64,000 nucleotides of DNA from Escherichia coli (GTDB lineage Bacteria; Pseudomonadota; Gammaproteobacteria; Enterobacterales; Enterobacteriaceae). Positions 12,001 through 18,000 of the stretch are shown one piece after another. The stretch is taken from assembly GCF_044324875.1 (NCBI RefSeq), contig NZ_CP172185.1, one strand, 5' to 3'. The number at the start of each line of letters is the position of its first letter. The first letter of the stretch is position 1. The position numbers are program-made.

Positions 12001-15000
12001 GAGCGTCATTAAGATCGCGCCCGCTGGTATTGGACTGGGTTAACAGATGTCCGCCCTGATCCACCAGCGTGACGTTTCCCGGCGGCAGACCAGCAACCGC
12101 GCTGGAAACCAGATGCACAATGGCGCTAATTTGCCCTTCATCGAGTGCGCGCCCAGGTAACAGATTTACCGTCACCGATGCAGAAGGGGATTTTTGTTCA
12201 CGGACGAATAAAGACGGTTTCGGCATTGCCAGATGTACGCGCGCCCCTTTTACCGGGCCGATAGTTTCGATGGTACGAGAAAGCTCGCCTTCCAGCGCCC
12301 GCTGATAATTCACCTGTTCGCTGAACTGGCTGATACCAAACTTTTCCTGATCGAGCAGTTCGAAACCGACCGCGCCGCCTTTGGGCAAACCTTGTTGTGC
12401 CAGGCGCAGACGCAGTTCGTGAACTTTATCTGCCGGAACTTCAATAGCGCCGCTGGCTTCGCTGAAGCGGTAAGGAATATTCATTTGCGTCAGTTGGCTG
12501 ACAATTGCGCCACCATCCTGATCGGAAAGATTGCTGAATAATGTGCGGTAGTCGGGGGCTTTCGCCCACAGGATCAGTGCGACCATGACCGCCACTGCTG
12601 CGGAACCGGCAACAATCAATGGAATTTTCGGATTCGCACGCAGGCGATTAAGCCACTCAAGAGATTTTGTCTGGGCTGCAGTCGCATTCATCGCGCACCT
12701 CGTGGCTGATTATGGACGGCGTTATTGGCAAAGTGGAACAAGACTCACTCCCGGGTCAGCAAACTCGAAAAATTGACGCTCCCATTATTTGTGCTTTCGT
12801 TTTTTTCTATCCGCCAATAAACCCGTTTTTTTGTTGCTATTTAGCGCCTTTGTCTTATTGACTTACTGGTAGGCTTTGCTACCAGAAATTATCCGGGAGA
12901 TGAAAATGTCAGCGATACAGGGGATTGAAGGGGTTATCAGCCAGTTACAGACCACGGCGATGAGTGCACGTGCGCAGGAATCACTGCCGCAACCGACCAT
13001 TAGTTTTGCCGGGCAGCTGCACGCCGCGCTCGATCGCATAAGCGATACACAAACAGCCGCCCGCACGCAGGCAGAAAAATTCACTCTCGGTGAACCCGGC
13101 GTGGCGTTAAACGATGTGATGATCGATATGCAAAAAACCTCAGTTTCAATGCAAATGGGGATTCAGGTGCGTAATAAGCTGGTGGCGGCGTATCAGGAAG
13201 TGATGAGCATGCAGGTGTAGGTTGTGTAACCTGTTGTTAATTACATCCGATCTCACCGCGTGGGGCATGGATGGGGCAAACTCACTCTATCCTAGATTCT
13301 ACGTCAGTACTTCAAAAAGCATAATCAAAGCCTTGATAAATATGCATTCCTTCGAAATTCAGCTTTCACCCATTGGGTGAAAGAAAAGTGCTCAAAAATA
13401 TGTTAAATTATCAGCTTTTATGACTCGATATATGGTAAAATAATAGTAAGAAAAGTAGTAAAAAGGGGTTCTAATTATGATTAATAAAATTGATTTCAAA
13501 GCTAAGAATCTAACATCAAATGCAGGTCTTTTTCTGCTCCTTGAGAATGCAAAAAGCAATGGGATTTTTGATTTTATTGAAAATGACCTCGTATTTGATA
13601 ATGACTCAACAAATAAAATCAAGATGAATCATATAAAGACCATGCTCTGCGGTCACTTCATTGGCATTGATAAGTTAGAACGTCTAAAGCTACTTCAAAA
13701 TGATCCCCTCGTCAACGAGTTTGATATTTCCGTAAAAGAACCTGAAACAGTGTCACGGTTTCTAGGAAACTTCAACTTCAAGACAACCCAAATGTTTAGA
13801 GACATTAATTTTAAAGTCTTTAAAAAACTGCTCACTAAAAGTAAATTGACATCCATTACGATTGATATTGATAGTAGTGTAATTAACGTAGAAGGTCATC
13901 AAGAAGGTGCGTCAAAAGGATATAATCCTAAGAAACTGGGAAACCGATGCTACAATATCCAATTTGCATTTTGCGACGAATTAAAAGCATATGTTACCGG
14001 ATTTGTAAGAAGTGGCAATACTTACACTGCAAACGGTGCTGCGGAAATGATCAAAGAAATTGTTGCTAACATCAAATCAGACGATTTAGAAATTTTATTT
14101 CGAATGGATAGTGGCTACTTTGATGAAAAAATTATCGAAACGATAGAATCTCTTGGATGCAAATATTTAATTAAAGCCAAAAGTTATTCTACACTCACCT
14201 CACAAGCAACGAATTCATCAATTGTATTCGTTAAAGGAGAAGAAGGTAGAGAAACTACAGAACTGTATACAAAATTAGTTAAATGGGAAAAAGACAGAAG
14301 ATTTGTCGTATCTCGCGTACTGAAACCAGAAAAAGAAAGAGCACAATTATCACTTTTAGAAGGTTCCGAATACGACTACTTTTTCTTTGTAACAAATACT
14401 ACCTTGCTTTCTGAAAAAGTAGTTATATACTATGAAAAGCGTGGTAATGCTGAAAACTATATCAAAGAAGCCAAATACGACATGGCGGTGGGTCATCTCT
14501 TGCTAAAGTCATTTTGGGCGAATGAAGCCGTGTTTCAAATGATGATGCTTTCATATAACCTATTTTTGTTGTTCAAGTTTGATTCCTTGGACTCTTCAGA
14601 ATACAGACAGCAAATAAAGACCTTTCGTTTGAAGTATGTATTTCTTGCAGCAAAAATAATCAAAACCGCAAGATATGTAATCATGAAGTTGTCGGAAAAC
14701 TATCCGTACAAGGGAGTGTATGAAAAATGTCTGGTATAATAAGAATATCATCAATAAAATTGAGTGTTGCTCTGTGGATAACTTGCAGAGTTTATTAAGT
14801 ATCATTGCAGCAAAGATGAAATCAATGATTTATCAAAAATGATTGAAAGGTGGTTGTAAATAATGTTACAATGTGTGAGAAGCAGTCTAAATTCTTCGTG
14901 AAATAGTGATTTTTGAAGCTAATAAAAAACACACGTGGAATTTAGGTTAGACTATAAATAGAAAAAGGCGTTTTGACAGACTATTCATGTTGTTGTTAAT

Positions 15001-18000
15001 TCGTCTCTTCCAGAATAAGGAATCCCATGGTTAAAAAATCACTGCGTCAGTTCACGCTGATGGCGACGGCAACCGTCACGCTGTTGTTAGGAAGTGTGCC
15101 GCTGTATGCGCAAACGGCGGACGTACAGCAAAAACTTGCCGAATTAGAGCGGCAGTCGGGAGGAAGACTGGGTGTGGCATTGATTAACACAGCAGATAAT
15201 TCGCAAATACTTTATCGTGCTGATGAGCGCTTTGCGATGTGCAGCACCAGTAAAGTGATGGCCGTGGCCGCGGTGCTGAAGAAAAGTGAAAGCGAACCGA
15301 ATCTGTTAAATCAGCGAGTTGAGATCAAAAAATCTGACTTGGTTAACTATAATCCGATTGCGGAAAAGCACGTCGATGGGACGATGTCACTGGCTGAGCT
15401 TAGCGCGGCCGCGCTACAGTACAGCGATAACGTGGCGATGAATAAGCTGATTTCTCACGTTGGCGGCCCGGCTAGCGTCACCGCGTTCGCCCGACAGCTG
15501 GGAGACGAAACGTTCCGTCTCGACCGTACCGAGCCGACGTTAAACACCGCCATTCCGGGCGATCCGCGTGATACCACTTCACCTCGGGCAATGGCGCAAA
15601 CTCTGCGTAATCTGACGCTGGGTAAAGCATTGGGTGACAGCCAACGGGCGCAGCTGGTGACATGGATGAAAGGCAATACCACCGGTGCAGCGAGCATTCA
15701 GGCTGGACTGCCTGCTTCCTGGGTTGTGGGGGATAAAACCGGCAGCGGTGACTATGGCACCACCAACGATATCGCGGTGATCTGGCCAAAAGATCGTGCG
15801 CCGCTGATTCTGGTCACTTACTTCACCCAGCCTCAACCTAAGGCAGAAAGCCGTCGCGATGTATTAGCGTCGGCGGCTAAAATCGTCACCAACGGTTTGT
15901 AATAGCGGAAACGGAATGGGGAAACTCATTCCGTTTTTGTTTATCGCCTTAGACGGCAAAAGCGCTGTCGCCCACCTGCGCTTGCGCATACCAGGCCATA
16001 AGCTCCGTGGTTCCTGGTTCTCCTTCCGCTGGCGCCCAGTGCGCATAGTCATCGGCAGCCACGGGTTGATAGCCACCGTGTTTTACTTCAAAAATTATGC
16101 CACCGGTATCCAGCGACAGCACGGCATGCCAGGTTCCTGCGGCCATCTCCAGCACCGTACAGGTTTCCCCCAATATCGCCCGATGGGTGACGGTACCCCG
16201 ATCGTCAAAATTCAGCACCACGAAACGACCCCTTAATGGCAACAGTAGTTCGAAGGTGTGAGGGTGTCGGTGCGGGCGCACGTAGGTTCCTGGTCTATTT
16301 CTGGTTTAAAATGGATACCTGATCCTGAACGTTTTCTGCCATCCACGATCCGTAAACGCAATAAACCCTTTGACCATCAGAGTGTCTCATTTGACACTCA
16401 TCACCACGTCGGATGTTGTTACGACCACAGACGCAACAGTAACCTCTGGATAATTTAATCTTCGTTCTTATTTTTATTAATATACTGCGTTATAAAAATG
16501 AGCGATTTTTGATAGTGGTAATTTTATTGTGCTTTAGAATGCTCCCTGGGTAATATAATTTATTAAACAGGAGTGTAAATGTTTCCATTAAATGATCTGT
16601 CGTTAAAAGCTCAGTCGGTTCAATTAAATAAAATCACATCTAATACTGAGTCTACGATAAAACAACAAGATTTAGTATCTGATGATGCAATGATAAATGA
16701 ATTATCAAGTGAGTTAGTCAGTTGTCTTGGAAATGGTAGGTTTACACCAATTAGTGAAGACAGCAAATTACTGAATATGCTGTCAGAACTTAAGTTGTTG
16801 CACTCAGAATATTTCGGATGGGGTGATTATAGTCTCTGGTTTCAAGGTTTCTCGATTTATGATAAGACAGGTTTTATCATGATAGAAAAAAGTCAGGGAG
16901 CTGGTAATCCACCCATTCGGCATACATTAGAGTTTATATCGACTAATATTGCAGAGTTTCTAGACAAGTTAACGAAAATTACAGATGCCAGACTTTGCAA
17001 AGGTTTCTGTGACTGGGCTAATTCAGTCAAAGAAGGCGCATCGAATGACTTCAAAGAAAATGTGGATATAGCATTGGTGAGATTGTTTAAATGTGTTGAA
17101 CTCCACAATAGTAAACTTGACTTAACAGATCTTCACTTGGGGTCTTTGCCACCTCTTCCAGACTGGATTGAGGTGCTTTCTCTTCGTCATAATGGCCTTG
17201 CCACAATACAGATTCCCAAATTCTGCAAAGAATTAGAACTCGATTTTAATAATTATATGGTATTTCCAAAAGTATCCGATGGAATTACCCAGGTCTCCGT
17301 AGATAATAATCTGATATCGCGTGTTGACTCATCTCCGTCAAAGGCTATGAAAATTTTTATTTATCGCAATAAAATATGGTAAATACCAGCAATGCCTGAG
17401 ACTACTAATCTGTTTAATTGTGGCGATAATAAGATAAAAAAATTCAATACTTCCCAAATCATCTGGAGACAGCACGTATGGAGTATAATATTGAGGTTGT
17501 CCCTGCGATACATAGCAATTTAAAATTACTTTTTATAGAATGTTATCCTATTAAAGAGGAGTTTTTAATGCCGTGGACTTTGACAGACATTACCTATGAA
17601 ATATCGCAGCGAAAATATATTGTTACGAATTCCGCTGATTATGATAAATATTCTGACATAGTCAAAAGGGGCGTAATAGATGGTAAGAATTAAATAGTTA
17701 GGCGCAATTGTGTCACTGGAATAGAGGTTTCTTGTGGCGCATGTGGAAGGAGCGTCTAAGGACAAGACATATGCGGCTGGTGATGAATAAAGGCGCAGCA
17801 CGTCGAATGCAAGAATGTGCTGCGTCTGGCTCATGGCAATTCATTATTTTCGCATAGCGTCAATGACAAAAATCGACTGTGTGGATCAAGTTGATAATCA
17901 GCAAACGGTTCGCAATCAACGAAACCATGATTCAAATAAAGTTGATGGCAGGCCGTAAATCCAGCCTGTGTACCCGTTTCTAAGCTCAGGCGATGAAGGC

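Follow-up and report, generated by a model that had tools for sequence, protein, structure and literature searches.

An ISEcp1-blaCTX-M-1-wbuC unit downstream of fliE

We analysed a 64,000-nucleotide stretch of Escherichia coli contig NZ_CP172185.1 (assembly GCF_044324875.1), hereafter the window, in which the insertion sequence (IS) ISEcp1 is joined to blaCTX-M-1, a gene for a class A extended-spectrum β-lactamase (ESBL), and to a remnant of wbuC (orf477). Positions 12700-16900 were read directly and the landmarks then recomputed; protein families were assigned with NCBIfam models, and all scores exceeded the curated cut-offs. The joined components make up a unit of 3,003 base pairs (bp) at positions 13291-16293, which lies between two TCTAT pentamers and comprises, in order, a complete 1,656-bp ISEcp1, an 80-bp spacer, blaCTX-M-1, a 345-bp wbuC/orf477 remnant, and an end, ACGTAGGTTCCTGG, that resembles the right inverted repeat (IRR) of ISEcp1. 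Insertion took place 70 bp beyond the end of the fliE stop codon. This is where an earlier sequence-only reading had placed it, with no flagellar coding sequence interrupted, and fliE (12906-13220, plus strand, 315 bp; TIGR00205, 88 bits, cutoff 30) is indeed intact, with the same length as in three genomes that retain the empty site (L002, L003, and L004).

ISEcp1 occupies positions 13291-14946 on the plus strand and is 100% identical to an element annotated in RefSeq as the IS1380-like element ISEcp1. Its 14-bp left inverted repeat (IRL), CCTAGATTCTACGT, is found at 13291-13304 and its 14-bp IRR, ACGTGGAATTTAGG, at 14933-14946; the two are complementary at 12 of 14 positions, and no further copy of either is present in the window. 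The GC content of the element is about 31-35%. Its sole IS1380-family open reading frame (ORF) is the transposase gene (13477-14739, plus strand), which encodes a protein of 420 amino acids that matches NF033539 across residues 4-408 (329.6 bits, cutoff 180) and is identical in DNA to loci whose coding sequence is WP_000608644.1. The earlier description of a complete 1,656-bp ISEcp1 with 14-bp terminal repeats and a 420-residue transposase was thereby reproduced, as were all other coordinates and numbers of that reading, whose main claims hold with minor refinements.

The spacer (14947-15026, plus strand) was measured by direct reading and extends from the IRR to the start codon of blaCTX-M-1, an 876-bp ORF of 291 amino acids (15027-15902, plus strand) that scores 623.2 bits against the CTX-M family model NF033089 (cutoff 570). 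The gene had been called blaCTX-M-1 and placed in the CTX-M-1 group; because other units show 0 mismatches to ours over 3,003 bp and RefSeq names their coding sequence CTX-M-1 (WP_013188473.1), the allele is CTX-M-1. A consensus scan located an outward sigma-70-like promoter in the 3′ end of ISEcp1 (14843-14872, plus strand, 10/12 matches), which consists of TTGAAA, an 18-nucleotide spacer, and TACAAT (14867-14872) with a TG extension and is directed at blaCTX-M-1. Given what is established about ISEcp1, the gene is probably transcribed from this promoter, and the host would be predicted to resist cefotaxime. Directly 3′ of the gene is a terminator-like hairpin (15904-15941, plus strand) with an RNA folding energy of -23 kcal/mol and a z-score of -5.1; none of 200 shuffles folded equally well, and a simple terminator scan did not flag the hairpin.

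The wbuC/orf477 remnant (15949-16293, minus strand) aligns only with positions 43-132 of TIGR04366, a model of 132 positions (96.7 bits), in agreement with the truncation that had been proposed. The end of the unit removes its N-terminus, the full-length cupin domain is not present, and RefSeq labels the corresponding stretch of identical copies 'WbuC family cupin fold metalloprotein, incomplete, missing N-terminus'. The last 14 bp of the remnant form the alternative right end of the unit (16280-16293, plus strand), whose description as degenerate is borne out by its agreement with the IRR at 8/14 positions and with the inverted IRL at 10/14.

Target-site duplication and the empty site

The two pentamers that enclose the unit were confirmed at 13286-13290 and at 16294-16298, the right copy standing immediately after ACGTAGGTTCCTGG. 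A 5-bp repeat alone would arise by chance about once in 1,024 cases. The pentamer that follows the true IRR (14947-14951) is TTAGA rather than TCTAT, and the inserted entity is therefore not the IS alone.

A single TCTAT at the corresponding site of related genomes had been named beforehand as the mark of a genuine insertion. A 1,200-bp query was built from 600 bp of left flank, up to and including TCTAT, and the 600 bp of right flank that follow the second TCTAT, and was compared with 5,426 complete E. coli genomes. It aligned without interruption over its full length (1200/1200), the best identity being 99.8%, and 1,517 of the 5,426 genomes covered 80% or more of it at one location. In L002, L003, and L004, which come from unrelated sources and were read at the junction, there is exactly one TCTAT, with both sides as in the window. 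We accept the insertion as real because of this empty site and because the identical unit recurs elsewhere with different duplications.

The same unit in other contexts

To place the unit among its relatives, the unit with 500-bp flanks was searched against complete E. coli genomes and six matching records were fetched. Many complete-genome records match precisely the 3,003 bp and no further. Each of the six fetched copies is 3,003 bp long with 0 mismatches to the window; four are in plasmid contexts and two are on chromosomes. The plasmid copies lie within a DUF6404 gene near a colicin Ia immunity gene, inside the colicin Ia gene of plasmid pAVS0747-A (L007; target-site duplication (TSD) TATAA), adjoining pilV and the shufflon of an IncI1-type plasmid (L008; TSD TAAAAA), and between vapB and traI of an F-type plasmid. 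The chromosomal copies lie between ompF and asnS in strain AVS0747 (L006; TSD TTATTA) and between ydgJ and blr in strain 4600. Together the six have direct repeats of their own, all AT-rich and of 5 or 6 bp (TTATA, TTATTA, TATAA, TAAAAA, TTGTG, and TAATA), and the same unit has thus been mobile repeatedly. In addition, at least 1,563 PLSDB plasmids carry at least 80% of the unit.

These copies also bear on the right end. The sequence-only reading had taken the unit to carry the signature of one-ended ISEcp1 transposition, and it is true that the duplication abuts the alternative end; this end was not chosen in the present event, however. As the same boundary is found in at least six other contexts, it is a fixed limit of a circulating unit and was not made here.

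Two further features of these copies were noted. Perfect 6-bp repeats flank 2 of the 7 copies, those on the AVS0747 chromosome (TTATTA) and on the IncI1-type plasmid (TAAAAA), and the others have 5 bp; this could mean that the duplication is variable in length or that a sixth base agrees by chance. Strain AVS0747 holds the identical unit both on pAVS0747-A and on its chromosome, and 13 places on that chromosome match the unit-plus-flanks query, which hints at several copies of ISEcp1 or of the unit.

Chromosomal setting

The three stretches of the window outside the insertion were compared with the 5,426 complete genomes. At least 80% of the stretch was covered in one place by 5,165 genomes for positions 1-13290, by 3,627 for positions 16299-41298, and by 5,357 for positions 41299-64000; all three matched as single pieces colinear with E. 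coli chromosomes, and in this comparison no plasmid backbone was found anywhere in the window. The chromosomal context that had been proposed is thus upheld. Rfam identified the small RNAs DsrA (606-692) and C0465 (55377-55454) and a cluster of three tRNAs (36849-37148), ordinary landmarks of the E. coli chromosome that are consistent with this assignment.

One may postulate an alternative in which the unit is really plasmid-borne and, as a collapsed repeat, was threaded into a chromosomal contig during assembly. Identical units are abundant on plasmids, a single strain (AVS0747) can hold both a plasmid and a chromosomal copy, and the junctions were judged from the assembly itself. A mis-join would not, however, leave the unit ending exactly at its termini beside a precise 5-bp duplication of a site that is single-copy in the empty genomes, and plasmid backbone is missing from the whole window. 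We therefore consider such an artefact very improbable. Integration of a plasmid, or of a larger unit that was later reduced by deletion, was likewise set aside, since the direct repeats adjoin the minimal unit exactly at its two ends, with no plasmid backbone alongside.

The right flank begins with a 99-bp remnant of an integrase pseudogene (16295-16393, minus strand), annotated by RefSeq in L002-L004. The stop codon of this remnant, read on the opposite strand, falls within TCTAT, and because the pentamer is duplicated the remnant stays intact; the window and L002 yield the same translation of it. Next is a yedN-like DUF5503/LRR pseudogene (16579-17693, plus strand), whose coordinates were transferred from L002, where RefSeq labels it 'DUF5503 domain-containing protein, frameshifted; internal stop', and which gives a weak SspH2-like match. 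The chromosomal flank continues with yedL, encoding a GNAT acetyltransferase (17831-18310, minus strand), and yedK, encoding an SOS-response-associated peptidase (18421-19089, minus strand). The integrase remnant and the yedN-like pseudogene (16295-17693) are decayed, with a GC content of 32-40%. The claim of core chromosome on both sides therefore stands only in part: both flanks are chromosomal, but the right one is an AT-rich islet that varies and is not strictly core, and this form of it is kept in 1,517 of the 5,426 genomes (~28%). An AT-rich and gene-poor target of this kind is what ISEcp1 is known to prefer, and insertion there should cost little in fitness.

Distribution of the insertion

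Among the 5,426 complete E. coli genomes, none had the insertion at the fliE site, and a 38-mer spanning the left junction had no matches in GTDB species representatives and none in JGI metagenomes. A literature search on ISEcp1, fliE, and CTX-M-1, in which the term 'fliE' may also match 'flies', gave no match that was taken up. The earlier description of the ESBL gene as chromosomally fixed was an overstatement: this is one instance, no other complete genome has the unit at this site, and an intact unit such as this can presumably still move.

Strain MLI105 provided the only match of at least 80% to the unit-plus-flanks query. It was rejected as a further case of the same insertion, since what it carries is a longer CTX-M-15 unit between yedK and yedF. 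There, in a gap that corresponds to about 19.1 kb in the window (L001, 5690 to ~9000), an ISEcp1-blaCTX-M-15-wbuC′-Tn2 tnpA fragment unit is flanked by the TSD GAAAA; it is an independent insertion a few kb from the site in the window, which makes two hits on the same AT-rich islet. The two events differ in duplication (TCTAT and GAAAA) and in allele (CTX-M-1 and CTX-M-15), and on this basis it could be speculated that the AT-rich islet by fliE, with its integrase remnant, yedN-like pseudogene, yedL, and yedK, is a preferred and fitness-neutral landing pad for ISEcp1-blaCTX-M units, and that the window represents an unrecorded, stably chromosomal CTX-M-1 lineage. We regard this as unlikely. 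A hot spot was not accepted from the MLI105 neighbor, as a pair of events is too small a sample and AT-richness by itself could account for them.

The flanks are not closely matched among the complete genomes: identity peaks at 98.5-99.1%, and each stretch has its best match in a different strain. Identities this low indicate that the lineage of the host is not closely represented; taken with their mosaic pattern, they may reflect either a poorly represented host lineage or a mosaic flagellar region. The same pattern, together with the known tendency of the E. coli flagellar region to recombine, would fit a scenario in which another E. coli already had the insertion and passed it on, flanks included, by homologous recombination. 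The absence of the insertion from all the complete genomes, and of the junction 38-mer from the GTDB representatives and the JGI metagenomes, speaks against such a source, and we judge the scenario to be very improbable. Even if it were true, the unit would have the same structure and would still have arisen by transposition.

Relation to known ISEcp1 units

ISEcp1 is known to pair its IRL with substitutes for its own IRR, which yields units of variable size with 5-bp AT-rich duplications, and chromosomal ISEcp1 units with 5-bp AT-rich TSDs have been described at many sites (PMC10100714; 10.1101/2022.03.05.483147). The closest relative of the unit in the window is the ISEcp1-blaCTX-M-1-wbuC cassette of IncI1 plasmids, which has been reported at several IncI1 integration sites (PMC12868207). 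In the pST3 shufflon and in the colicin-Ia-region insertions this cassette has the same DNA, IRL, 80-bp spacer, and right boundary, and the copy in the window differs only in its place and its duplication, being chromosomal, 70 bp after fliE, and flanked by TCTAT.

A second relative is the ISEcp1-blaCTX-M-15/-55-orf477 remnant unit of 2,971 bp (PMC10100714). It shares ISEcp1 with the window, and in PLSDB the match runs through unit position 3003 at 99.4% identity; by comparison, the unit in the window has CTX-M-1, the 80-bp spacer, and an IRR-like end that differs at two bases. The gap of 32 bp between the two lengths would fit a shorter spacer in the 2,971-bp unit. The CTX-M-15-linked wbuC remnant of MLI105 stops at the same base, ACGTAGGTCCCAGG, ahead of its Tn2 tnpA fragment. 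Because the CTX-M-15/-55 units and the MLI105 remnant end at this common base, the right boundary is old and shared, and the unit in the window corresponds, with CTX-M-1 in place of CTX-M-15/-55, to the classic unit of 2,971 bp.

Finally, the insertion can be set beside other chromosomal ISEcp1-blaCTX-M units, of which those of AVS0747, 4600, and MLI105 were read here as examples. These have the same design, in which the IRL is combined with an alternative right end and flanked by AT-rich TSDs. The window differs from them in its site, and in being a minimal unit without a trace of an earlier location.

Origin of the insertion

The explanation that best accounts for these results, and in which we place very high confidence, is that a pre-formed 3,003-bp ISEcp1-blaCTX-M-1 unit transposed in one piece into the E. 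coli chromosome near fliE. The donor would most likely have been a conjugative plasmid, IncI1-type plasmids being the commonest carriers. In the proposed course of events, the ISEcp1 transposase would have taken the IRL together with the IRR-like ACGTAGGTTCCTGG inside wbuC, bypassing its own IRR, and the unit would have inserted at the AT-rich TCTAT 70 bp downstream of fliE, duplicating the pentamer. At its new location blaCTX-M-1 would probably be read from the outward promoter of ISEcp1, with the hairpin following the gene. As no functional gene is broken, the cell has gained, with little apparent cost, an ESBL gene that does not depend on a plasmid.

Three points weigh against this explanation or limit its detail. 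First, the IRR-like end is weak when considered alone, as agreement with the inverted IRL at 10/14 or more positions occurs at 12 sites on the plus strand of the 64-kb window; matches of this quality are common, and the end was rejected as significant by itself. That it functions as an end follows instead from three observations: the TSD, the empty site, and the use of the same end in seven contexts. Second, the interior of the 3-kb repeat is as the assembly gives it. Third, the minimal unit carries no DNA of its previous site, and for this reason the donor replicon cannot be read from it.

Significance

Both the element and the process by which it moved are already known and well described, and what is new is the insertion site, which was previously unrecorded. 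The unit is identical to many plasmid copies and to several chromosomal ones, and chromosomal insertions with 5-bp duplications are widely documented; the finding therefore offers no mechanistic novelty, and its use lies in epidemiology, in surveillance, and in the annotation of this genome. An ESBL gene in the chromosome needs no plasmid for its inheritance, can persist without selection for one, and is missed by surveillance that is based on plasmids, while the unit, being intact, can hop back to other replicons.

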